64,000 nucleotides of DNA from a virus. The DNA lies in IMG/VR virus record IMGVR_UViG_3300009506_000015, positions 1 to 64,000 of that record, one strand, 5' to 3'. Below, in pieces: positions 1,470 through 41,492 of the stretch (position 1 is its first letter; the number at the start of each line of letters is the position of its first letter). Under the pieces are notes generated by a model, which did no database searches, was not told the origin of the DNA, and saw only the letters and a list, made by a program, of their open reading frames with translations. The translations under genes and the position numbers were made by a program.

Positions 1470-2449
1470 GCAGAGTCCTGCACGCCGACATCACGGGGTC
1501 ATCCGATATCTACTCCGTGACCATAGACCAGGACTACAGCCAGCCTACGTCGTCCATGATATTCGAGTGTGACAGCACAACGCTTTCCCTAGGCGATTCT
1601 GTACAGGCGGACGTGGGATTTGACGACGATCACGCAGTCCTTTTTACAGGATACGTTCTGGAGAAGGACGTACAACGGGACCAGAACGGTGTAAGATACT
1701 CCGTCCGGTGTCGTGATCAGCTATGGCGTGCTATGGCGTACTTTATTGCAGCGGAAGACCCACAATCGCCGCTAGAGTACAGCAACATCGAATCCGCGAC
1801 GCTGGTACAGAACATGCTGGAAATGTCAGGCATTACGAGCTACAGCCTTGACGTTCCTGGCTTTACGTTCGCGCCCGAGGAGCCGCTGGAAGTGCAGCTA
1901 ACGTCTGCATGGGATATGATACAGCGCATCTGCCAGCTAATCGCGTGGCATTGCTACGACGACTACGGCACGGTACGATTCCTAGATCGCAAGCCATACA
2001 ACGTGGCTGGCGATTCGCCAGTGGCTACGCTGATAACTGGTACGGGCGAAGCGATCCTGGCCGTACAGCCGTTCTCCATAGGGAGTGATAAGATAAGGAA
2101 CAGGGTAGTCGTGTACGGGCGCGAAGGCGTGTATGCATCCGCCCAGGCATCAAGCCCGTTCCTACCAGCGGGCTTCTACAAGACGGAGGCCATATCCGCA
2201 CCGGACCTGATAGACACTACGTCTATGGCCCAGGATATCGCGGATTACAACCTCGAGCTGCTGAACAGACTGGAAAAGACTGCAACGGTGAACATAGAAG
2301 GGAACCCAACGGTCAGGGCCAGGCGGGTCGTAACGGTGACGGAAGAAGATACGGGGGTATCTGGAGACTGGTTCGTGTATGGGTGCAGACACGAGATACG
2401 CGACACGTACACGACGAACATGACACTCGTACAAAGGCAGACATCATGA
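1466..2449 (+). CDS. Baseplate hub / tail tip protein (gp27/GpD-like)
   Basis: Hub-like motifs LFTGYV, CRDQLW, RNRVVVYG, GNPTVR, GDWFV; ATGA overlaps at both ends. Confidence 0.65.
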   Translation: MSRVLHADITGSSDIYSVTIDQDYSQPTSSMIFECDSTTLSLGDSVQADVGFDDDHAVLFTGYVLEKDVQRDQNGVRYSVRCRDQLWRAMAYFIAAEDPQSPLEYSNIESATLVQNMLEMSGITSYSLDVPGFTFAPEEPLEVQLTSAWDMIQRICQLIAWHCYDDYGTVRFLDRKPYNVAGDSPVATLITGTGEAILAVQPFSIGSDKIRNRVVVYGREGVYASAQASSPFLPAGFYKTEAISAPDLIDTTSMAQDIADYNLELLNRLEKTATVNIEGNPTVRARRVVTVTEEDTGVSGDWFVYGCRHEIRDTYTTNMTLVQRQTS

Positions 2450-4884
2450 GCGTTAGCGTGACGGTAGATGGAACGGATAGGACATCCAGCCTGATAAGGA
2501 TGGAACGGCGGGACCAGTATTGCGACCCCGGCGCGTCGGTAGAACTTGTGTTCGACAACGTGTTTGAGATCCTGCCCTGGAAGGATGTTGTGGTATACGA
2601 GAACGGGACAAAGACATTCACCGGGACCACGTCGCAGATAGAGGCGTCCCGCGACGTGTTACAGTTGACCATCAGGGCCAGCGACGACATACGCCGCATC
2701 AAGGAATACTTCGTTGCTGAGGACTACGAGACCGCTGGCGAAGGTGTGAAGTATTGGCTCAACCTGTTCGCCACAGCAGCAGGGTGCTCGGTATCGTTTG
2801 ACACCGACTACGACCCAACGCCGCTGGTCGGTATGACGATGGGTAAGATGATGGCGGTGGAGATCGTCAACGAACTTCTGTTGTTTGCCGGGTGGGACAT
2901 GTGGTGCGACGCCGACAACACCCTGCATTTTGGCTACAGGATGACAGACGCCGGGGTGTCATACAGCCTTGCCGCTGGCGACAACCTGGTCGGTATGCTC
3001 AGGACAAGGGATTCCGAGTCTTGCAGGAATAGGGCCATCGTGTACGGGGCCATCGGTTCGGCTGTGGCCCAGGCCCAGTTCGGGTGGGAGATAGACGACG
3101 ACGACTGGCGTACTATGGTTGTCAGCAGCGTGTATCTCGAGACTGTTACCCAGGCTTATGACCTTGCCAATAGGATGGTAAGTGTGGCTGGCCCAGAATG
3201 GGACATCAAGCGTTGCGACCTGGACGCAGTCTATGAAGACATAGAGATAGGCGACCGCGTATCGTTCGATGATGGCGTCGGCAACAGTGGCACCGACCAC
3301 GTGACGACGCTCACGACGGTGTGGGAAGGCGACAGCGGCATGGAGACGATGCACGTCGTCCTGGGCGAACGGTGTCCTATCGTCGGATCGCCTGGAGCGG
3401 CTCCAATAGATGGCCGGGACGTGATCGTAGCCACCTATGAATGTGGCGTGTGGCGATGCCGAGACATATGGGCAGATACCATCCATTGGGAGTCGATGAA
3501 CAATGGCCTGGAGGATGACGGCCTGAACTGTGAGTGGTTCATACGCGATCCGTTCGAGCCGAATACGCTGGCGTTCCTACTGACTCAGGAAGCCCTGTAC
3601 CAGACGTTATCCACTGAGCCTGGGTATGAATACTGGATGCCGAAGCATTTGCAATTCGAGGGGGACGTAGAGGATTGGTACATAGCCAAGATAAGGTCTA
3701 CGGTCGCAAGGCGCGGCGCTTACTATTTTGCGTTAACCAGGAAGGCCGATCCAGCCTATTGGTCTGCCGTTGCATTGTCGAATGATGGATGTGATACGAT
3801 AAGGCTTGCAGACAGAGTCGATAAATGTTCTGGCCAGTATACGGTATATGACTGCGGTGTAGGCAGACCACCAACATTCAGTGGTAGGCTTTTTGGTTCT
3901 AAATGTAATTATACATACCAGACGGAATGTGCTGTACAATGCTGGCACAACCCACAGGCGTATGGTGGCCTTGGTGGTTCTGGAGGCCTTGCTGCGTGGC
4001 ACAGGAACGACCACGGATGTACTATAACAGGGCTAACGTCACCTAGGGCGTCAAATGCAAGGCCAGCGTATTGGCATTGCACACGTGCGAGTGTTGGATA
4101 CTCAATGGACGGTGTCTATAATGGTGATATTGCAGAGGGTTTATGCGTAGACCCTGATTCAGTTATACTATCTCCGTGGACGTTTAGTAGGGGCACGGCT
4201 ATATGGTTCTGCTACGCAAGTGGTGGGATATTAGAATACAATATCTGTACTACTCCGAACGCCACTGGAACAATAAGCGTGCCAGCATCTAGCTGGACAC
4301 AGATGTTCTCACTTCATATACCGTATAACCAGTCATACACACAGGACGCGTTCGATAGTTCTGAATTTCCAAGTATTATATACTTCACCCCTGGAAAGTG
4401 GGACGGTGGTGTTTTAACTGGAATAACTGATAGGTGGCCCACAAGGAACGGTGTTGCGCTTGAACTTCCCTGGGGATCAAGCCCTGCGTCTATATGTCAT
4501 GACTGCCAGGGGTCTATCGGGACGTACTCACCGGATAGGACCAAGGTATATTGCTTCAGCGGCGGTAGCCCATCTAGGTTTGCCACAAGTGACGACGAGG
4601 GCGACACGTGGACAGAGGGCGCATCCATTCCATTCAATACTGCGTGCTTTTCAGGGTTCCCGTACTCGTCTGCAAAGGTATATGCTGGCAGACACGCTAT
4701 CAGGGACGGGACGACGGATGAAGATACCGCGCTGATATACGTATCGTGGGACCGTGGTGAGTCGTGGCAGGACGTCACTGGCGATCTGTACGAGCAGACA
4801 AAGGCTATGGGTCGAAGGTATACTAAGTCTGGCGACCCTCTAGGTGCATCTGGATTGGTCACGATAGCTCCGAGGTATTCATGA
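2446..4884 (+). CDS. Tail protein: hub-like N-terminus plus C-terminal BNR/Asp-box propeller (receptor binding)
   Basis: Start moved to ATG 2446 (ATGA overlap); RNRAIVYG motif; Asp boxes SDDEGDTW and SWDRGESW. Confidence 0.6.
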   Translation: MSVSVTVDGTDRTSSLIRMERRDQYCDPGASVELVFDNVFEILPWKDVVVYENGTKTFTGTTSQIEASRDVLQLTIRASDDIRRIKEYFVAEDYETAGEGVKYWLNLFATAAGCSVSFDTDYDPTPLVGMTMGKMMAVEIVNELLLFAGWDMWCDADNTLHFGYRMTDAGVSYSLAAGDNLVGMLRTRDSESCRNRAIVYGAIGSAVAQAQFGWEIDDDDWRTMVVSSVYLETVTQAYDLANRMVSVAGPEWDIKRCDLDAVYEDIEIGDRVSFDDGVGNSGTDHVTTLTTVWEGDSGMETMHVVLGERCPIVGSPGAAPIDGRDVIVATYECGVWRCRDIWADTIHWESMNNGLEDDGLNCEWFIRDPFEPNTLAFLLTQEALYQTLSTEPGYEYWMPKHLQFEGDVEDWYIAKIRSTVARRGAYYFALTRKADPAYWSAVALSNDGCDTIRLADRVDKCSGQYTVYDCGVGRPPTFSGRLFGSKCNYTYQTECAVQCWHNPQAYGGLGGSGGLAAWHRNDHGCTITGLTSPRASNARPAYWHCTRASVGYSMDGVYNGDIAEGLCVDPDSVILSPWTFSRGTAIWFCYASGGILEYNICTTPNATGTISVPASSWTQMFSLHIPYNQSYTQDAFDSSEFPSIIYFTPGKWDGGVLTGITDRWPTRNGVALELPWGSSPASICHDCQGSIGTYSPDRTKVYCFSGGSPSRFATSDDEGDTWTEGASIPFNTACFSGFPYSSAKVYAGRHAIRDGTTDEDTALIYVSWDRGESWQDVTGDLYEQTKAMGRRYTKSGDPLGASGLVTIAPRYS

Positions 4885-5678
4885 GCGATAACGACATAAG
4901 GCTATTCGTAAGGGATATCATACGCTACATTAACCACCGGCTGGATAGACCAGAGCGGCTGATACTCGGCGGCACGTCCGGGTCTGGTGGGGGATATGGA
5001 GGCCCACCGGCTGGCGTGATAGGCAAGCTGCCACAGTCGTATGTGTGCTACGACACTGACGAGCTTACGACGGCTGGCTCTAGCCCTGCACCGAGCCTGT
5101 TGCACAACCTGAACCGCATACGTGGTGGGCACGCGATAGGTGACGATGCCATTATCGAGCGCCACATGGCGTGGTCGCCAGATGATACATTTAGCTCTAG
5201 CGGCTGCATAGACGCCAGCCATATCCCGTTCTTCAACGATGCCACGGCCATACCAGATGACAACGTCAGGGATACCATAGAATGGGTGTATACCCATAGG
5301 GCGGACGATCTCACGTCGAACTTCTATGTGACGCAGCAGTTTATATTCACAGTAGAAGGAGAGATAGAGGCGGTTACTGGCAACATCGAGATATGGATTC
5401 CATGTACGCTTACCATTTCCGAGGTACGTGCCAGGGTTAGCGTAGCACCTGTAGGACAGGATATCATCATTGACATCAACAAGAATGGAACGTCGGTGTT
5501 AGACGTTGATAAATTAGTCATAGAGGATGGGGCATACTATGGCACAGCGACTCCCGACACAACGGCGCTTGCTGACGGCGATATATTGACGATGGACGTG
5601 GACCAGCGAGGTTCATCAACACCTGGTTCGTATCTGGTCGTCAGTATCATCTGCATACAATATTTACAGGGGGCATAG
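4881..5678 (+). CDS. Minor tail / tail fibre-associated protein
   Basis: Coupled in tail operon; C-terminal APVG..IIIDINKNG...DGDILTMDVDQ.GS..PG domain typical of phage tail proteins. Confidence 0.55.
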   Translation: MSDNDIRLFVRDIIRYINHRLDRPERLILGGTSGSGGGYGGPPAGVIGKLPQSYVCYDTDELTTAGSSPAPSLLHNLNRIRGGHAIGDDAIIERHMAWSPDDTFSSSGCIDASHIPFFNDATAIPDDNVRDTIEWVYTHRADDLTSNFYVTQQFIFTVEGEIEAVTGNIEIWIPCTLTISEVRARVSVAPVGQDIIIDINKNGTSVLDVDKLVIEDGAYYGTATPDTTALADGDILTMDVDQRGSSTPGSYLVVSIICIQYLQGA

Positions 5679-6671
5679 ATGGTATTCACTCCAGAGTTTG
5701 GAACTGGATACGAGCAAGGAAGTACGGAGGTTATAGCCGCAGTTGACTACTATGGGCAGTTGGCCATGTCAACAAGCGTTGTACATACTGGCGTATATTC
5801 TATGTGCATACAGGCATATGGCAGCGGTGCCATCAGATACATACAATACCACACGTCCGCCGGGAGTGAAATATATATCGGGGTTTGGGCGTACCTCCTG
5901 TACACCACGTACCCCGCACGTGTCAGAGTCTATCTTACGGACGGTAACTTCCTTGAGGTAAAATATGAATCTGGAAACACGTGGAACGCATACGTCAATG
6001 GTGGACTTGTTGAGAGTGGTTCTGTAACAGTAAACGTCAATGAGTGGCACCACCTTCAGGTGAGGTTTAAGGTGGACGATAGCGTTGGTGTGATCCAGAC
6101 AAAGATAGATGGTGTATCGGATGTGGACTACTCCGGTGATACCAAACCTGGTTCATCCTCAACGCTAGAACATATCTGGCTCATCATGGGCGGTAGTGGT
6201 ACTATACGCCGCGATGTGTACTACGATGACTTTGTGTACGGTACTGGTGACTGGCCCGGAGATATAAGGTTCCAGGTAATGGTTCCAGATGGCGACGATA
6301 CGGCGGAGTGGATTCCTTCAACTGGTGTAGATAACTATGCACTAGTAGACGAGATACCGCCATCCGATGCCGATTACGTTACATCTGGCAGTTCAGGCCA
6401 GAAAGATTTATACACAATGGATTCGTGGGATGGTACACTGAAAACGCCACAGTTCTTGGTACAGTGGATACGGGCGAAGAAGGACTCCGCAGGGACACGG
6501 CAGTTACAGATGGTGGTGGATAGCAACGGTACTGAAGATGCCGGAGATGCGTTCGACTTAACTACGGACTATGCGTACTACAACAGAGTCATAGAGGAAG
6601 ACCCCGACACAAGCTCTGCCTGGACGGAATCTGCAATCAACGCCTTGAAAGCAGGGATGGAGTCCACATAA
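5679..6671 (+). CDS. Minor tail protein with LamG/ConA-like domain
   Basis: NEWHHLQV...KIDG...YYDDF pattern; tail operon. Confidence 0.55.
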   Translation: MVFTPEFGTGYEQGSTEVIAAVDYYGQLAMSTSVVHTGVYSMCIQAYGSGAIRYIQYHTSAGSEIYIGVWAYLLYTTYPARVRVYLTDGNFLEVKYESGNTWNAYVNGGLVESGSVTVNVNEWHHLQVRFKVDDSVGVIQTKIDGVSDVDYSGDTKPGSSSTLEHIWLIMGGSGTIRRDVYYDDFVYGTGDWPGDIRFQVMVPDGDDTAEWIPSTGVDNYALVDEIPPSDADYVTSGSSGQKDLYTMDSWDGTLKTPQFLVQWIRAKKDSAGTRQLQMVVDSNGTEDAGDAFDLTTDYAYYNRVIEEDPDTSSAWTESAINALKAGMEST

Positions 6672-7127
6672 ATGACGGAGGTACTATATTCTAGCCAAAC
6701 TCTTATAGAGGTAGGCTACGAAGTACCATCGAATATATTACTGACTCAGACTCTTGTCGAGATAGGCTATATAATCCCGACAGAGCAGCAGATACAGGCC
6801 GATGTCGGCGTCATCATATTGCAGACAATGACGCCGACGATATACGTCGTGCCGCTACCGACAGTTTCGGCACAGGTAGGTGTGATACTTATCTCCACGC
6901 CAAGCGCGTCGATAGGTGGGCCTCAGACCGTATCTGCGCAGGTTGGTGTCATACTGGTATCTGGACCACAGGCTTCACCACAGGTTATAATTGGCATGGC
7001 AGTATCCAATGCAGTTATAGAGGTCGGCTACATACCATCTGTGCAACTAATGGTATCTGAGGCATTGTTAGAGGTTGGGTTTGTAAAACATTACAGGAAG
7101 TACGGTCCGCCCGTACAGCACGCGTAG
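6672..7127 (+). CDS. Virion protein with short internal repeats
   Basis: Repeats of the (L/V)(I/V/L)E(V/I)G(Y/F) type x4 and VGVI x3; abuts upstream gene. Confidence 0.5.
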   Translation: MTEVLYSSQTLIEVGYEVPSNILLTQTLVEIGYIIPTEQQIQADVGVIILQTMTPTIYVVPLPTVSAQVGVILISTPSASIGGPQTVSAQVGVILVSGPQASPQVIIGMAVSNAVIEVGYIPSVQLMVSEALLEVGFVKHYRKYGPPVQHA

Positions 7128-8355: not shown

Positions 8356-9727
8356 ACTCGAAAGCCTTCTTGAGTGCTTCTTCTGGCACTCCCTGTTTGA
8401 ATACGTCTATCGTCTTCATCATTAGGTCGGTATATTCTACCCGCCACTCGTCATACGCGACGCCCTGTAGCAGAGCAGACAGGAAGTCATCGGGCTTCTC
8501 GACGCCAGCGTCCTTGGCGTATTTCAACAGGCCCGTAGGAACAGACTTGCCAGTACCAGCCGCTACTGCGCCGACATTGATCGGCGGCGTCTCGTGTACG
8601 CTGTTGACCTCGGCGGCGTCTACGCTTTGTTCCTGTTCCAAGGACTTGTCTGTAGGCGCTCGTTCGCCGCCGTAGTATTCTGGATATGCGAATTCTGCTG
8701 CGGAGCTGCCTTCCTTGCAGTAGATGTACAGGGCTTGCAGCATACCCCACGTGATCTTGCGCCCGTCCACGATACCAAAGTGCCGCTTTAGATGGTTCAT
8801 CACACGCGGGTTGTTCGGTGAAAATGGGTCTATCTTGTGTTCCGGGTCCAGCTTGTCGCGCAGCATTTCCACAAACGCTTCGGTGTTGACCAGTACGCGC
8901 CACTCACCCTTGCCGCTGGTTACTTCGTCCTTCGGCTTCATGTCACCGAACCACATCTTGACCATTTCGCGCTTATCTTTCTTGCGCTCGCTATCCTCAA
9001 ATTCCTCGACGGCATCCATCGCTTGCTGTTCGCGCATCTTGTAGTACGCGATGAACTTCTCATTCATCGCACCCTTGGCGTTCTTGTCCACGGCCCACTT
9101 CATGGCGGATATGCCATCGGCGTCGTCAAAGATTTCGGCCAGCGTCATGCCCTTGAACTTACCTTCGCTGCCCCAGCCGTCGCACACGTACATCCCCAGC
9201 TCTTCTTCGCTGTTATTAGAACGCTGCGTAGCCTTATCGCCTTCTTCTTCCCAACCTAACACCTGGGCCATGCGCTCGTCAAAGTATAACTCACCGCCCA
9301 GGTGGCGACCGAACTGTGACAGCGCGTTCTTGATAGCGTCGGTCTTGGCAGACTTTGCGGCGGTGTCTAGCTGCTGTGCAGTAGGCGGGTTCACTTCCCC
9401 TGTCCTGCGGTTATTGCTACACCTGGCTACACCAACGCCCCGGCCTAGCCTGGACGTGCTGCGAATACTGTTGTCCTCTATCAGATAGTATATCTGTACA
9501 TCGACATCCATAGTGAAGACATAGTCGCCATATTCATTTGTGAAACGGTCGTCACCCACCTTGGTGGCGGACCACCCATCGAAGCCGAATATCTCGTTCG
9601 CTTCCTGTATCGCCCATTGCCCGGTGACGTACTTACCAAAGATGCCCTTGCTTGAATCGCCAGGGTGTACGGCTTCACTGGGCACTTCCTGGTCCAACGC
9701 GTGTTGGACCTCCTCGTAAGACTTCAT
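8330..9727 (-). CDS. Rad52/Rad22-family single-strand annealing protein (Sak-like) with long C-terminal extension
   Basis: YVTG..AIQEANEIFGFDGWS and AAKSAKTDAIKNALSQFG..LG..LY Rad52 motifs. Confidence 0.85.
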   Translation of the reverse strand: MKSYEEVQHALDQEVPSEAVHPGDSSKGIFGKYVTGQWAIQEANEIFGFDGWSATKVGDDRFTNEYGDYVFTMDVDVQIYYLIEDNSIRSTSRLGRGVGVARCSNNRRTGEVNPPTAQQLDTAAKSAKTDAIKNALSQFGRHLGGELYFDERMAQVLGWEEEGDKATQRSNNSEEELGMYVCDGWGSEGKFKGMTLAEIFDDADGISAMKWAVDKNAKGAMNEKFIAYYKMREQQAMDAVEEFEDSERKKDKREMVKMWFGDMKPKDEVTSGKGEWRVLVNTEAFVEMLRDKLDPEHKIDPFSPNNPRVMNHLKRHFGIVDGRKITWGMLQALYIYCKEGSSAAEFAYPEYYGGERAPTDKSLEQEQSVDAAEVNSVHETPPINVGAVAAGTGKSVPTGLLKYAKDAGVEKPDDFLSALLQGVAYDEWRVEYTDLMMKTIDVFKQGVPEEALKKAFEYGFSRLSK

Positions 9728-12315: not shown

Positions 12316-12490
12316 ATTCCTCCCAGTCTTCGGTGTACATCCAGTATTCTACGTCTGTGAGTAGAGCGTTGTCCTGGGGCTTATCGACTATGCGGATAAG
12401 TATATATTTCCTTAGAGTCGATATCCACAGGACAACGCCCAAGATGCGCGGGTCTTTCCGGTTGTGTACTTTAGACCCTACGTGTATCAT
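12308..12490 (-). CDS. Small hypothetical protein
   Basis: Overlap-coupled to both neighbours. Confidence 0.5.
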   Translation of the reverse strand: MIHVGSKVHNRKDPRILGVVLWISTLRKYILIRIVDKPQDNALLTDVEYWMYTEDWEEYA

Positions 12491-12517
12491 TATAACATAT
12501 CCGGCGGAATCTGTAAA
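12489..12517 (-). promoter_or_regulatory. Conserved phage promoter inside the 3' end of E1, upstream of replication genes
   Basis: TTTACA GATTCCGCCGGATATGT TATAAT. Confidence 0.7.
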
Positions 12518-13179
12518 TCAATTTGTGCTAGCCACCCTAGCATGTCAAACTTGATATGATACGGAACGGGTTCACCGTTGATCGCGGCGACAACTTCTCG
12601 CGCCGCCAGCGATGCTAGGAACATCCCGTTGTACGCCACCGAGCGCATCGAGCATGGAATCTCCATAGGGTGGTCGTCCAGTATCGAGCTTGTGTATGCC
12701 TCTGACGTGAGCGTTGGTGGCGTGACATGATACAGTTCCACCACGTTGCTGCCCATGCGGCAGTCAAAGTAGTATTCCCACCAGTTCGATGCCGCCAGCG
12801 TCTTGGCTATCGCTTCGCGTGATTCGTGAGAGTCCACGGCGGATACGACTATGACATCATCGTTGAAGTTGTAGAACTCTTCTTCGGTCCCGTTCCACCT
12901 GAACGCGCCCGGTACTATGGATACGTCGTCCACGAACTCGAGCACGTTCTTGACGATGGCTGTGACCTTCTTGTCGGGAACATCACTTGGCTTGTAGAAC
13001 TGTGGCTCGATGTTCTCCGGCGACACTATGTCGTCGTCGTACACGTTGATCGTGCCAACGCCCAGCTTGGCGAGCAGGTACACCAGATTGCTGCCAACGG
13101 CACCAGAGCCAACCACGACTACAATCCTGCTTTTCAGGATATCGTGATCGACAAGATCGTCCGAGCGTGACCTATCCAT
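12490..13179 (-). CDS. ThiF/MoeB/E1-like ubiquitin-activating enzyme
   Basis: VVGSGAVGS, YDDDIVSPENIEPQ, KKV, AVDSHESR, DCRMG; candidate catalytic Cys in EIPCS. Confidence 0.9.
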   Translation of the reverse strand: MDRSRSDDLVDHDILKSRIVVVVGSGAVGSNLVYLLAKLGVGTINVYDDDIVSPENIEPQFYKPSDVPDKKVTAIVKNVLEFVDDVSIVPGAFRWNGTEEEFYNFNDDVIVVSAVDSHESREAIAKTLAASNWWEYYFDCRMGSNVVELYHVTPPTLTSEAYTSSILDDHPMEIPCSMRSVAYNGMFLASLAAREVVAAINGEPVPYHIKFDMLGWLAQIDLQIPPDML

Positions 13180-14116
13180 ACGCCGACTCCATCACGCTGT
13201 AGAGCGCGTCATAGCACTTGTCGCACAGCGCCAGGTCGGGCATACCGTCTATACCTGGCACGATGTTGACATGCCCCTCGATATCACCGGCGCAGGTGAA
13301 GCACTTCATTTCACCTACGTGCGCACACTCCAGGCAGATAGGCGGGGTCGCGCTGTCCAGACAGTTCTCGCACACTTCGGCAGCACACAGGCCGCATGTA
13401 CGCAGTCTGCCAACTTCGTGGCACAGCTCGCACACACCGTAGTTCATTACTCTATCGTAGCCATGCAGGTGTGGCCGATGCACCGAGCCGTTCTTCGGAG
13501 ACTTGAACTTGTCATAAAGTGGCTGGTTGACTCCGTACTCCAGCGTGACATTCAAGTCTTCGTAGCTGCCCAGCGTGTCGCGCCTGGCGATCACGATATC
13601 GGACCCGAACTCGATAGACACCGTGGTTGCGTCTTCAGACTGCTGCATCTTCAGCGCGTCTTCTATGGCGTCCAGGTCAGTACCGGACCAGAACGCCGAC
13701 ATGGGATGTCTGTGGACCCAGGCGAAGCGATACTCGTCCAGGTCGTAGCCATCATCCATAGCGAGCATGACTGCCTGAGCGTAGTGCATAGCAGTAAGCT
13801 CCGTCGTGGCATGGGAGTCGTTTTCGTGTTCGCTGAGTACGTACAGCCTAACGACGTGCATATCGCCACTTTCGGTTTCCCTATACAGCCCGTAACCGGA
13901 CCACTCCAGGGATGTCGCATGGTTCAGGACCAGCGCTCGAACAGTCACTTCGCTGTCTAGGTGGATAGTATGGATGGTTGGCAACTGGTCCTTACGTGGC
14001 TTGAGCGGTAGTTGGTGGAATTGTTTCACTACGGGTGGCGTAGAACTTTGCCTGTACCCCTGCGTCACGCTCCGGTTCCTATGCTTCTTCTTGAACAGTT
14101 TATCCATCAGTCGCAT
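13172..14116 (-). CDS. JAB/JAMM metallopeptidase with C-terminal Cys-rich Zn fingers
   Basis: EWSG (catalytic Glu) and WVHRHPMSAFWSGTD (HxH...SxxD); several CxxC pairs at the C-terminus. Confidence 0.85.
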   Translation of the reverse strand: MRLMDKLFKKKHRNRSVTQGYRQSSTPPVVKQFHQLPLKPRKDQLPTIHTIHLDSEVTVRALVLNHATSLEWSGYGLYRETESGDMHVVRLYVLSEHENDSHATTELTAMHYAQAVMLAMDDGYDLDEYRFAWVHRHPMSAFWSGTDLDAIEDALKMQQSEDATTVSIEFGSDIVIARRDTLGSYEDLNVTLEYGVNQPLYDKFKSPKNGSVHRPHLHGYDRVMNYGVCELCHEVGRLRTCGLCAAEVCENCLDSATPPICLECAHVGEMKCFTCAGDIEGHVNIVPGIDGMPDLALCDKCYDALYSVMESAYG

Positions 14117-14765
14117 GTATCACCTCGTGCAGTCTACACCTGCCACCCATATGGCAGTAGCTACTCGGGCAGGTACGCGGGATGTGGACGTTACAGTAGT
14201 AGCCGAACGTCCTGGCGCACCTGTACCCGATCTCCTCGGACAAACATGATGGGCATAGCTTACGCCCACAGAACTCGCAATGATGGTACGAGCGCGGGGC
14301 GTACCATTCGCCCTTGTGCGATGGGCACTCCTCCGCGTCCGGGTTATACTTTGAGTTGGTCCACCAGCCTTCGTATGCCCCAGGAATGTAGATACTGCGC
14401 AGGAAATCGACGGACATGCCGTACAAAGCGACTATGTCGCCCTCTCTTAGCAGCACGTCGAACCCGTCTTTCGTGTTGCCCATGCATGGGTGGCCCATAT
14501 GCACGTGCGGGTGCGGCTGGCCGCGCATGACCACGCCGCCCTTGACCCTCCTGCCGGTGAACTCAAGTTCGTACTTGCCGAAGTTAAAGTCATCCAGCTC
14601 CGGCGCTATGATATCGTCGGTAGTAACAATGGCGCTGCCTACCTTTACCTTCCACACCCTGCCATCCCATTCGGTTTCATAGTATCCGCCAGAACCTCTG
14701 GGCGCTCTGCTCATAGCTTTCTTGAACACGCCCGTGTATATCAGATTTGGTACGTCTGTTATCAT
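14100..14765 (-). CDS. Prokaryotic E2/UBC-like conjugating enzyme with C-terminal Zn fingers
   Basis: PHPHVHMGHPCMGN followed by helices (UBC HPN..C signature); FGKYEL strand; start moved to ATG 14765 with GGAG RBS. Confidence 0.7.
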   Translation of the reverse strand: MITDVPNLIYTGVFKKAMSRAPRGSGGYYETEWDGRVWKVKVGSAIVTTDDIIAPELDDFNFGKYELEFTGRRVKGGVVMRGQPHPHVHMGHPCMGNTKDGFDVLLREGDIVALYGMSVDFLRSIYIPGAYEGWWTNSKYNPDAEECPSHKGEWYAPRSYHHCEFCGRKLCPSCLSEEIGYRCARTFGYYCNVHIPRTCPSSYCHMGGRCRLHEVIHATDG

Positions 14766-14781
14766 TATGCTCTCCAAACAC

Positions 14782-14813
14782 AAAAGCCGGGGGGACGTGG
14801 CAATCCCCCCGGC
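14782..14813 (-). terminator. Intrinsic terminator/attenuator after the Ubl gene
   Basis: 10-bp stem GCCGGGGGGA/TCCCCCCGGC followed by TTTTG on the minus strand. Confidence 0.7.
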
Positions 14814-14828
14814 ACAAGATGTAGACCG

Positions 14829-15188
14829 TCAAGCTCCCTTGACGGTGCCACTAAAGACGAGAACCTGACCGGGAGCTACGTGATCCATTTCCTCTGCGTA
14901 GCTGCCGTTCATGATCACCTGCATTGCCTCGGCGTCTTCCCTGCCCATAGATACGAGCCGCTTGCGCAGCGTCCCTACGGTTTCATCGTGGGCGACCTCC
15001 ACGGTCATCGGTCTGCCGTTGTGGAACATCACCCTCACCGAGCCAGCAGGGACCGTCAGGTCTACCATTTCTGGCTCATCATCAAAGTCATCCTCGATCT
15101 CGTCGTCGTCATCGAAGATGGCGTAGATTTCTTCGTCATCGAAATCATCGTCTTCCTCGAGTGGCGGCCTCTCATTCCAGTCTGTCAC
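14829..15188 (-). CDS. Ubiquitin-like beta-grasp protein with acidic N-terminal extension
   Basis: VRV..., ETVGTL, VIMNG, APGQVLVF pattern ending TVKGA; GGAGGTG RBS, GTG start; heads the E2-JAB-E1 genes. Confidence 0.75.
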   Translation of the reverse strand: MTDWNERPPLEEDDDFDDEEIYAIFDDDDEIEDDFDDEPEMVDLTVPAGSVRVMFHNGRPMTVEVAHDETVGTLRKRLVSMGREDAEAMQVIMNGSYAEEMDHVAPGQVLVFSGTVKGA

Positions 15189-15221
15189 GATGCATCACCT
15201 CCATTTTTAATGTGCTACAAG

Positions 15222-15250
15222 ATTATAACATTTGCGGCTGGAAGTGTAAA
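15222..15250 (-). promoter_or_regulatory. Conserved phage promoter (TTTACA-17-TATAAT, TG extension) for the Ubl operon
   Basis: TTTACA CTTCCAGCCGCAAATGT TATAAT. Confidence 0.8.
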
Positions 15251-39605: not shown

Positions 39606-41048
39606 CTAGAGCGGGACTCCGGTGGCCTCTTGGAACTTTTCCACGGTCACGAACCGACCGTCCACGACCTTGGCGACCGATTTCTCGAACGCCGTGCTCA
39701 TGGGGTCGTCCACCTCTTCCTTGACGTCGGCCATCAGCTCGTACTGCGGGCGGAGTTCGGTCAGCGCGTCGATGACGTCCTGAACCGTGATGTCCTTGGC
39801 GTCGCGTCCGCCTGAAATGGCGTACATCGACGCCCTCTGCGTGGCGTTGGCGACGAACGCAGCCGGGTACTTGAGCGCGGCCTGGTGCAGACCGTCCTTC
39901 TCGGCTTCCGTCATGTCAGCCACGTTCAGAACGGACGAGTAGACCCCGACGAGTTCTGCGACGCTGTCCCTGTCCAGATCACCGAGCTTGATGATAGCAT
40001 CCACGCGACCGGGCCGGAGCATGGCGCGGTTGATGCGGTTCAGGTGGTTGGTGGTCAAGATGGTCATCACGGCGTCGTTCTTGCCGATGATGCCGTCTGC
40101 GGTGTTCAGGATCTCGTTCACGTGCGTGGTGCGCTCGCTGCCGCTGATCTCGGAGTCGATGTCCTCGAAGAACACGACTGCGGGCTGGAACAGCTTTGCG
40201 AACCGCAGCGACGGCGCGATGCTGTCACCAGGGCGGACGTAGATAAACGTCCAGCCGTATTCTGTGGACAGTTGTGACGCCCGGAGCGCGGTCAGCGTCT
40301 TGCCCGAACCGTAAGGCCCGTACAGGAGCACCGTGCGTTTGACGTTCACGCCCAGCCCACGCAGCGTGTCGCGGTGGGTGATTGGGCTGAACAGGTTGGC
40401 CTCGAGCTGGCGGCGTTCCGCCCGGCTGTAGACCAGGCGGCTGGTGTCCCCAGTCATGTCAAGGAACTCGAACCCGGAGTTGATCGCCTTGCCTGCGAAG
40501 ATGCTGTTGTCCCGCAGGTACGCTTTCCAGGTGTTGTCGATGTCGAGGACGTAGGGTTCGAATTTGCGGCGGTACTTGTACAGCACCCGCACGTACCCTT
40601 GCAGCGGCTCTTCACCGTTGTAGCGGTGACTGACCTCCATGATGAAATCATCCTCGAGGCCGGGGATCACGATGCGGCCTGACACAACGGGCCGCGACTG
40701 GTTGTACCCAGTCGTGATGGTGACCTCGCCGGGCAGGTCGCTGAAGAAGCCACGGATGACGTTGCCGAACACGTTTCCGAACTTTTCGCGCAGCACGACG
40801 TCCAGGGCGTTCAGGCCATCGTCGGGGTAGCACCTGACGACCGACTCCCGCTCGGTGGCGGATTCCATCTTTTTCAGGTATGACTGCAAGGCATTGATGC
40901 CGTCAGCCACGCTTGACATGTGGGCGGGCAGAATAATCTGGTCCCCCTCAAAGATGACCGCCTGTTGCGCCTGGTACTGCTGCACCAGAGCGCGCTCGAG
41001 CGATTCCTTTGCCTTTTGAATAGCAGTTTTCCTCGCTGGTGTTTCCAT
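39606..41048 (-). CDS. Classic-clade AAA+ ATPase (no protease domain seen)
   Basis: LLYGPYGSGKT, FFEDID, TTN, AMLRPGRVD second region of homology; start moved to ATG 41048 (GGAGG RBS). Confidence 0.88.
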   Translation of the reverse strand: METPARKTAIQKAKESLERALVQQYQAQQAVIFEGDQIILPAHMSSVADGINALQSYLKKMESATERESVVRCYPDDGLNALDVVLREKFGNVFGNVIRGFFSDLPGEVTITTGYNQSRPVVSGRIVIPGLEDDFIMEVSHRYNGEEPLQGYVRVLYKYRRKFEPYVLDIDNTWKAYLRDNSIFAGKAINSGFEFLDMTGDTSRLVYSRAERRQLEANLFSPITHRDTLRGLGVNVKRTVLLYGPYGSGKTLTALRASQLSTEYGWTFIYVRPGDSIAPSLRFAKLFQPAVVFFEDIDSEISGSERTTHVNEILNTADGIIGKNDAVMTILTTNHLNRINRAMLRPGRVDAIIKLGDLDRDSVAELVGVYSSVLNVADMTEAEKDGLHQAALKYPAAFVANATQRASMYAISGGRDAKDITVQDVIDALTELRPQYELMADVKEEVDDPMSTAFEKSVAKVVDGRFVTVEKFQEATGVPL

Positions 41049-41100
41049 ATTTGCCTCCCTTTTTAATGTGCGCGTTAGGGTACATGTACCCCCGCATATT

Positions 41101-41129
41101 ATTATAACATTTCGGGCTAAAAGTGTAAA
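41101..41129 (-). promoter_or_regulatory. Conserved phage promoter for the AAA+ ATPase
   Basis: TTTACA CTTTTAGCCCGAAATGT TATAAT. Confidence 0.8.
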
Positions 41130-41154
41130 TTCCTGGCACCCAAAAAATTTGAGG

Positions 41155-41183
41155 TTGACAAATAGAATGATGGCGGTTATAAT
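41155..41183 (+). promoter_or_regulatory. Consensus sigma70 promoter, probably leaderless transcript
   Basis: TTGACA-17-TATAAT; ATG at 41190 with no RBS. Confidence 0.8.
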
Positions 41184-41189
41184 GGACGC

Positions 41190-41492
41190 ATGAGGTATGC
41201 ACACAAGGTGGACGATAATCAGGGAGACCTCATTCAAGTAGCCAGGTCTATAGGTGCAGCCGTACAACCGCTATCTATGGTCGGTGGCGGCTGTCCAGAC
41301 GTCCTAGTAGCGTTCCGTGGGCTGTGGTACGTCGCGGAGATTAAGGACGGTAACAAACCGCCGTCGCGCAGAAAGCTGACAAAGCGCGAACGCGAGTGGC
41401 ATGACGTGTTCGGTGCTGTAGCGCCGGTACATATCTGGGAGACGAGGGAAGATGTATTCAGGACGTTGGGTGTTGTAGATGAAATGGGATGA
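41190..41492 (+). CDS. VRR-NUC-like PD-(D/E)xK nuclease / Holliday junction resolvase
   Basis: KVDDNQ, GCPDVLV, AEIKDG, LT..E..WH. Confidence 0.75.
   Translation: MRYAHKVDDNQGDLIQVARSIGAAVQPLSMVGGGCPDVLVAFRGLWYVAEIKDGNKPPSRRKLTKREREWHDVFGAVAPVHIWETREDVFRTLGVVDEMG

Follow-up and report, generated by a model that had tools for sequence, protein, structure and literature searches.

A polyacidic, lysine-free N-terminal tail and a Gly-Ala C-terminus on a predicted ubiquitin-type modifier from a phage-borne candidate conjugation cassette

Introduction

Bacterial ubiquitin-like conjugation, represented by Bil, Bub and CBASS Cap2/3, has so far been described as a host defense against phages. Among protein modifiers, a disordered acidic segment occurs in SUMO, where it affects partner binding, and in Pup, where it affects recognition by the Mpa unfoldase; the SUMO tail has about 20 residues and includes lysines, and Pup is not a beta-grasp protein and is ligated through a side chain. 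The use of ubiquitin G76A by E1 was the topic of a 1994 study by Pickart et al. (PMID 8125920). This mutant is reportedly charged slowly.

Two precedents in the literature point in opposite directions as to a terminal Ala. Ensifer aridi BilA ends in Gly97-Ala98, whereby Ala98 blocks ATP binding in the structure with E1 and BilC cuts there, as seen by Edman sequencing (10.1101/2023.09.26.559546); this Ubl conjugates only without Ala98 and is inactive when untrimmed (Chambers et al., 10.1101/2023.09.26.559546). In comparison, the terminal residue of 1,583 CD-NTases encoded in Cap2/Cap3 operons is either Gly or Ala (Jenson et al., PMC10097602). The Enterobacter cloacae CD-NTase naturally ends in Ala and is conjugated, and a CD-NTase mutated from Gly to Ala still forms the E1 thioester and the conjugate (PMC10097602). 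On the phage side, the tail-assembly Ubl (TAPI) of lambdoid and T1 phages, with a conserved C-terminal Gly, adjoins the JAB-NlpC protein TAPK (PMC1779556). A phage-borne complete set of Ubl, E2-like, JAB and E1 genes was not found described in the literature searched. Here we analyze such a set, whose first gene encodes a small protein with a very acidic N-terminus and a Gly-Ala end.

Results and discussion

Genomic setting and transcription signals

The cassette is located in the window, i.e., the whole stretch of 64,000 nucleotides that was analyzed, which is part of a complete virus record (IMGVR_UViG_3300009506_000015) of 75,428 bp with direct terminal repeats. On the minus strand, the Ubl gene comes first, followed by the E2-like, JAB and E1 genes (Table 1), and around them lie genes for a sigma-like protein, an SNF2 helicase, SSB, DnaB, a methylase and a Rad52-like protein. 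Since these neighbors have replication and recombination functions, the cassette is probably expressed early. The whole stretch was present in one sequencing run only, from a marine sediment metagenome. In addition, a 2024 soil metagenome run contained two contigs of ~150 nt identical to 13845-13995 and 15042-15195, a share too small to say anything of the habitat.

Table 1. Coordinates of the cassette's features in the window.
Feature	Coordinates	Strand	Basis and details
Promoter, sigma-70-type	15222..15250	(-)	TTTACA-17-TATAAT + TG; 11/12 consensus matches; directly upstream of the Ubl gene
Shine-Dalgarno GGAGGTGAT	15194..15202	(-)	Sequence reading; 5 nt ahead of GTG 15188; 9-nt match to the classical complement
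Ubl open reading frame, 119 aa	14829..15188	(-)	Opens MTDWNERPPLEEDDDFDDEEIYAIFDDDDEIEDDFDDEPEMVDL..., closes ...VFSGTVKGA, then TGA
Ubl disordered polyacidic tail, residues 1-47	15048..15188	(-)	pLDDT 56-64, no secondary structure (AlphaFold2)
Ubl beta-grasp core, residues 48-113	14850..15047	(-)	AlphaFold2, Foldseek, family profile
Ubl flexible C-terminal tail GTVKGA, residues 114-119	14832..14849	(-)	Family alignment
Intrinsic-terminator-like hairpin, 11 bp (9 GC) + TTTTGTGTTT	14776..14813	(-)	Behind the Ubl stop, ahead of the E2-like gene
E2-like protein, 221 aa	14100..14765	(-)	ATG 14765 behind GGAGAG; motif HPHVHMGHPCMGN; Cys-rich zinc-finger-like C-terminus
JAB/JAMM metallopeptidase, 314 aa	13172..14116	(-)	Glu71, His135-x-His137, Ser144-x-x-Asp147; polybasic N-terminal ~45 aa; Cys-rich C-terminus
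E1, minimal single-domain ThiF-type, 229 aa	12490..13179	(-)	PF00899 2.4e-21; GxGxxG, Asp116, Arg121, Cys176 in PCSxRS

The full cassette could be compared between two loci, this phage and a syntenic locus (L002) on the 74.3-kb phage contig JABAHP010001096.1, where the order is sigma-like, Ubl, E2-like, JAB, E1, a conserved 172-aa gene, DnaB and methylase. The phage collection gave neither a DNA nor a protein match; no relatives were found in the viral contigs with the E1, the Ubl alignment, P0016 or the JAB alignment as the query, and none were found by a scan of the genome contigs. A further phage locus (L003; IMGVR_UViG_3300026519_000011, 1798-6726) encodes a small E1 that is only distantly related (31% identity) and stands behind the genes of three larger proteins, one of 466 aa with an HxH...S..D motif and two of ~460 aa, one of these carrying HPH...QPCLG; a small Ubl was not found there. 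This locus may represent a different phage E1/JAB cassette, and profile comparison gave no tie between it and the cassette described here.

The terminator-like hairpin listed in Table 1 probably attenuates transcription, leaving the Ubl in excess over the enzymes. The L002 counterpart has a hairpin with a T-run at the same place, right after the Ubl stop (about 8381-8418). The same TTTACA-17-TATAAT promoter is repeated at 12489-12517 (-), directly behind the E1 gene, and an identical one stands at 11049-11077 of L002, in the same relative place behind E1.

A ubiquitin-type beta-grasp protein

The Ubl is not recognized by Pfam, PADLOC, PHROGs or NCBIfam, and a word-indexed search with it returned only the protein itself. 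An exhaustive HMMER search (phmmer) yielded eight short homologs, and a profile search extended these to 21, making a family of 22 with this protein. The single-sequence fold was poor in the C-terminal half, and the alignment-based model was used instead. Built with AlphaFold2 on the 22-row alignment, it has a pLDDT of 92-97 over residues 49-113, and its strands and helices (b1 49-55, b2 61-65, helix 71-80, short helix 84-88, b3 90-93, b4 96-98, b5 109-113) follow in the same order as in ubiquitin. Foldseek against the PDB gave a probability of 1.0 to the C-terminal domain of ISG15, Caldiarchaeum ubiquitin (ranks 3-4 and 10 among the structural matches), ubiquitin and NEDD8, with a TM of about 0.7 (target). 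The family profile, compared with PDB sequences, matched single ubiquitin at E 0.014 and polyubiquitin chains at a sum of 7.5e-24, and one phmmer match to the Ubl was a eukaryote-type polyubiquitin. The preliminary description, made from the letters alone, had called this protein a Ubl, and the model, Foldseek and the family profile all agree with that naming. Since both the structure matches and the family profile find ubiquitin, the protein is a beta-grasp of the ubiquitin type, not of the ThiS/MoaD type.

Two other phmmer matches, P0017 and P0022, are giant FliD flagellar-cap proteins of 2,435 and 4,516 aa, in which several internal repeats correspond to the first half of the beta-grasp domain in the Ubl.

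Enzymes encoded downstream

The Ubl shares its operon with a ThiF-type E1 (PF00899), an association repeated in the syntenic L002, and with a peptidase of the JAMM/JAB family that has kept its catalytic motif. The E1 homologs (11-12) are 205-241 aa long and conserve the nucleotide-binding residues and the PCSxRS cysteine. The best PDB matches of this E1 are ThiF, UBA3, UBA5, UBA6 and UBA1, and within PADLOC it matches only the Cap2-type 'E1-E2' models.

The JAB protein had no usable match in Pfam, PADLOC, PHROGs or NCBIfam, and the Prok-JAB HMM found nothing in the phage's own genome. It nevertheless has the zinc site of the JAB/JAMM family, Glu ... His-x-His-x(6-7)-Ser-x-x-Asp, on an MPN fold, and the motif residues are conserved in L002. 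Its best PDB profile match was AMSH-LP, aligned across the JAMM motif at E 0.58, which is not significant alone, and its Atlas structure gave a TM of 0.61-0.70 to Prok-JAB and JAB clusters.

The gene between the Ubl and JAB encodes a candidate E2. Its HPH...G-x-x-C-x-GN and AYEGWW motifs are conserved with L002, and its Atlas leads, weak ones (<0.9), were a UQ_con cluster (0.83) and E2-CBASS (0.78). Pfam (UQ_con), PADLOC, PHROGs and NCBIfam gave no usable match, the UQ_con HMM found nothing in the phage's own genome, and comparison of its alignment with PDB profiles returned only weak matches to FYVE/MYND zinc fingers. Taken together, the motif, the operon position and the weak Atlas leads suggest an E2 identity. 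The listed start of this gene, TTG 14783, was rejected; the start was placed at ATG 14765 because the TTG falls inside the T-run of the terminator. Both the E2-like protein (14100-14330) and JAB (13172-13430), on the minus strand, end in Cys-rich modules with C-x2-C spacing, and a separate E3 gene was not seen.

A disordered polyacidic extension

Residues 1-47 of the Ubl comprise 24 D/E, one Arg, no Lys and five aromatic residues, with residues 11-40 reading EEDDDFDDEEIYAIFDDDDEIEDDFDDEPE. The very acidic N-terminus noticed earlier is the most acidic stretch of 40 aa in the window: among 306 open frames of at least 80 aa, the best 40-aa segment contains 23 D/E in the Ubl tail, 14 in the next best frame and 5 in the median one. 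The acidity of the tail is thus far beyond chance. In the homologs, to which the preliminary description had looked for conservation, it is the composition that is kept and not the sequence. Tails of 17-55 residues, with 38-58% D/E and 0-1 K/R, are present in 19 of the 22 family members and cannot be aligned except for a shared M-[TS]-E-E-E start and some hydrophobic or aromatic positions scattered along them; the remaining P0019, P0025 and P0031, closely related to each other, have just seven residues before strand b1. Because composition is conserved without sequence, the pattern points to selection on the tail for charge and disorder. Having no lysine, the tail would be protected from self-conjugation.

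Within the cassette, strongly basic sequence is confined to the first ~45 residues of JAB (13982-14116 (-); 9411-9520 in L002), which carry a KKKH motif common to both phages. Per 30 residues, they have a net charge of +7 in this phage and +15 in L002, against -21 and -16, respectively, for the Ubl tail. Since the two segments are opposite in charge, their pairing in two genomes suggests a charge-matched docking of the JAB N-terminus on the Ubl tail. The earlier proposals, an unfoldase handle or a nucleic-acid mimic, are not favored by the evidence over docking to JAB.

Two further observations concern acidic segments and their possible partners. In L002, the E2-like protein has an acidic C-terminal tail of its own (…EDQGEEETQGQEDQGEEE…), encoded at 9411-9496 by DNA that overlaps the polybasic N-terminus of JAB in another frame over 86 nt. 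The phage studied here also encodes a classical AAA ATPase at 39606-41267 (-) (PF00004 1.3e-13; phrog_10440, function unknown), 25 kb from the cassette, which is relevant only if the acidic tail serves as an unfoldase handle.

Glycine or alanine at the C-terminus

The ...SGTVKGA end read in the preliminary description is confirmed, and its place in the family changes how it is understood. In the 22-member alignment, 18 proteins end exactly in ...F[ST]G[STAN]VKGG, P0018 has one extra residue (GGD) and P0025 three (GGWAS), and the VKGA end is confined to this protein and P0021. Gly118 is invariant (22/22), and position 119 is Gly in 20 members and Ala in two. Taken literally, the protein does end one residue past a Gly; however, Ala119 is aligned with the terminal Gly column of VKGG and not beyond it, and so it does not have to be a cap that is removed. 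For Gly to become Ala, one base change (GGN to GCN) suffices. No variant of the Ala codon was seen among the sequencing-run contigs, where the codon was read from the source contig, the shares in other runs being too short.

The tail past strand b5 has six residues, two more than the four of ubiquitin. In the tree, both GA proteins belong to a poorly resolved clade of five, where they occupy the two longest branches; a shared origin of the two is compatible with the data but not demanded by them (p-AU 0.235). Since the GA end has been kept in two proteins that are only ~35% identical to each other, it appears to be functional.

Working model and alternative readings

The explanation that we prefer as a whole, giving it an even chance, is that the Ubl serves as the tag in a ubiquitin-like conjugation cassette carried by the phage, that its Ala end is charged and that JAB removes the tag. 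A strong early-type promoter would drive expression, and the hairpin behind the Ubl gene would keep the tag more abundant than the E2-like protein, JAB and the minimal E1. The mature end of the family would be VKGG without a cap, the last Gly having been replaced here by Ala through one base change, and E1 would adenylate Ala119 itself, in the way that Cap2 treats CD-NTases with an Ala end. Next, the Ubl would be handed on as a thioester from Cys176 of E1 to the E2-like cysteine and from there to lysines of target proteins. The conserved job of JAB would be removal of the tag and trimming of occasional extended precursors (GGD, GGWAS), not an obligatory licensing. The acidic tail, selected for charge and not for sequence, would stand out from any conjugate as a block carrying about -23 charges; it might dock the polybasic N-terminus of JAB, it might repel or mimic nucleic acid where the tagged proteins bind DNA or RNA, or it might do both. 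A bolder version is unlikely in our judgment: that this covalent block of about -23 charges, placed on DNA/RNA-binding or defense proteins of the host or of rival phages, switches them off as a nucleic-acid mimic, with the polybasic JAB as a dedicated eraser and the terminal Ala tuning reversibility.

As to the residue that is activated, direct use of Ala119 by E1 is favored over trimming by JAB, with a confidence slightly better than even, because the family is mostly uncapped, position 119 is constrained and, if the Ala were trimmed, JAB as well as E1 would have to work in a register shifted from that of their relatives. Against direct use it must be said that a single Ala following a conserved Gly is the very configuration trimmed by BilC and that Gly118 is the sole invariant C-terminal residue; moreover, a tail shortened by one residue could still reach the E1 active site, since its six residues past b5 exceed those of ubiquitin. 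The preliminary description had JAB remove the Ala as a licensing step. Developed into a type II Bil-like scheme, in which Ala119 is a one-residue cap and JAB must cut between Gly118 and Ala119 before E1 adenylates Gly118, this proposal gains from the cut of BilC in E. aridi BilA, placed exactly before Ala98 (10.1101/2023.09.26.559546), from the relatives ending in GGD and GGWAS as family forms that need trimming and from the intact catalytic motif of JAB. It loses from the prevalence of uncapped VKGG ends and from a position 119 that, unlike the variable BilA caps, looks constrained as part of a mature tail; a cut after Gly118 would also displace the register by one residue with respect to the rest of the family, and the E1 is a single-domain protein and not of the Bil type. 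We consider this licensing scheme possible, at clearly less than an even chance. Whichever of the two holds for this protein, obligatory licensing by JAB cannot be the rule of the family, because 18 of its 22 members end without a cap. The position of the two GA-ending proteins, on the longest branches in the tree, might also indicate a crippled, non-conjugating Ubl, for example, a decoy occupying a Bil- or CBASS-type E1 or JAB of the host without transfer; with the catalytic residues kept in the cognate E1, JAB and E2-like genes and with the GA end itself retained between such divergent proteins, this is very improbable.

Two other readings would take the cassette out of ubiquitin-like conjugation or deprive the Ubl of its tail. 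The genes could encode a sulfur carrier of the ThiS/MoaD/CysO/QbsE type, whose thiocarboxylate is made by E1 for phage-directed thiolation and which JAB trims or releases. ThiF is indeed among the E1 matches (NF006395 at 1.3e-17, below the cut-off; 1zud at 1.3e-16), and sulfur pathways combining JAB, Ubl and E1 are known from CysO/Mec+ and QbsE/QbsD (see also Iyer 2006, PMC1779556). However, in both fold and sequence profile the Ubl is like ubiquitin and ISG15 and unlike ThiS or MoaD, a Cys-bearing E2-like gene stands between the Ubl and JAB, and sulfur transfer has no use for an acidic tail of 47 residues. A search of the whole 75-kb phage genome for the partner enzymes rhodanese, MoaE and ThiG gave none at E up to 1. 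Because of the ubiquitin-type fold and the absence of these partners, a role in sulfur transfer is hardly to be expected. Translation might, on the other hand, begin at the internal Met41 (MVDL, ATG 15068), in which case the acidic stretch would be a leader that is not translated or the product of a faulty ORF call, and the short forms P0019, P0025 and P0031 indicate that a Ubl without the tail is viable. No ribosome-binding site comparable to that of GTG 15188 precedes ATG 15068, the reading frame is open all through the tail, and an in-frame acidic tail is common to most of the family, including the syntenic L002 gene, which starts with ATG. The homolog tails and the Shine-Dalgarno match thus settle the start, left between the two codons in the preliminary description, in favor of GTG 15188, and initiation at Met41 is extremely improbable.

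Whichever residue is activated, a Gly-Ala end has its precedent in known biology. The new element is the polyacidic, lysine-free tail on a predicted ubiquitin-type modifier within a phage-borne minimal cascade. Being conserved, this polyanionic tail poses the question of what a charge-loaded ubiquitin does to its target, and the alternation of Gly and Ala at the end is a natural experiment on the specificity of E1 and JAB.

Relation to described pathways

In comparison with the SUMO tail, that of the Ubl is longer (47 residues) and free of lysine, and about 50% of it is D/E. The phage TAPI/TAPK pair likewise consists of a Ubl with a conserved C-terminal Gly beside a JAB peptidase; however, it comes without E1 or E2 and belongs to the tail module, whereas the neighbors of the cassette described here are sigma-like, DnaB, methylase, Rad52-like and SSB genes. 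The operon of the Caldiarchaeum subterraneum type (Ub, E1, E2, RING and Rpn11-like JAB) is similarly compact, with a ubiquitin-like beta-grasp modifier that is bound by its JAB. In contrast to the phage cassette, it is cellular, its modifier has no acidic tail, and it includes a separate RING E3, whereas in the phage the E2-like protein and JAB each carry a fused Cys-rich module.

In type II CBASS, a bacterial E1 accepts Gly and Ala alike as the C-terminal residue, and conjugation is reversed by a JAB (Cap3), much as is proposed for the cassette; the phage E1 domain matches the Cap2-type PADLOC models. The difference is in the tag, which is the CD-NTase itself and not a beta-grasp protein, and in Cap2, which is an E2-E1 fusion; in the phage, the E2-like protein and E1 have a gene each, and there is a beta-grasp Ubl.

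The cassette also resembles BilABCD, which has the same gene order (Ubl, E2, JAB, E1) and an ISG15/ubiquitin-like beta-grasp Ubl. E. aridi BilA ends in Gly-Ala too, with the Ala removed by BilC, and some members of that system have short C-terminal overhangs. The order and number of genes fit, the JAB assignment is supported, and that of the E2 draws on the HPH...GxxC motif and the weak Atlas leads. On the other hand, the phage Ubl, E2-like and JAB proteins go unrecognized by the PADLOC models, a polyacidic tail has not been described for BilA, and most members of the present family end in uncapped VKGG. The E1, with 229 aa and one ThiF domain, lacks the architecture that defines the Bil enzyme, and Bil is a bacterial anti-phage defense, whereas the cassette occupies the early/replication module of a complete phage. 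Overall, the cassette would work like Bil, judging from gene order and the type of Ubl, yet we do not file it as Bil because its E1 architecture is a different one and the cassette is viral. A small phage lineage with its own minimal cascade would extend such pathways to the viral side of the conflict.
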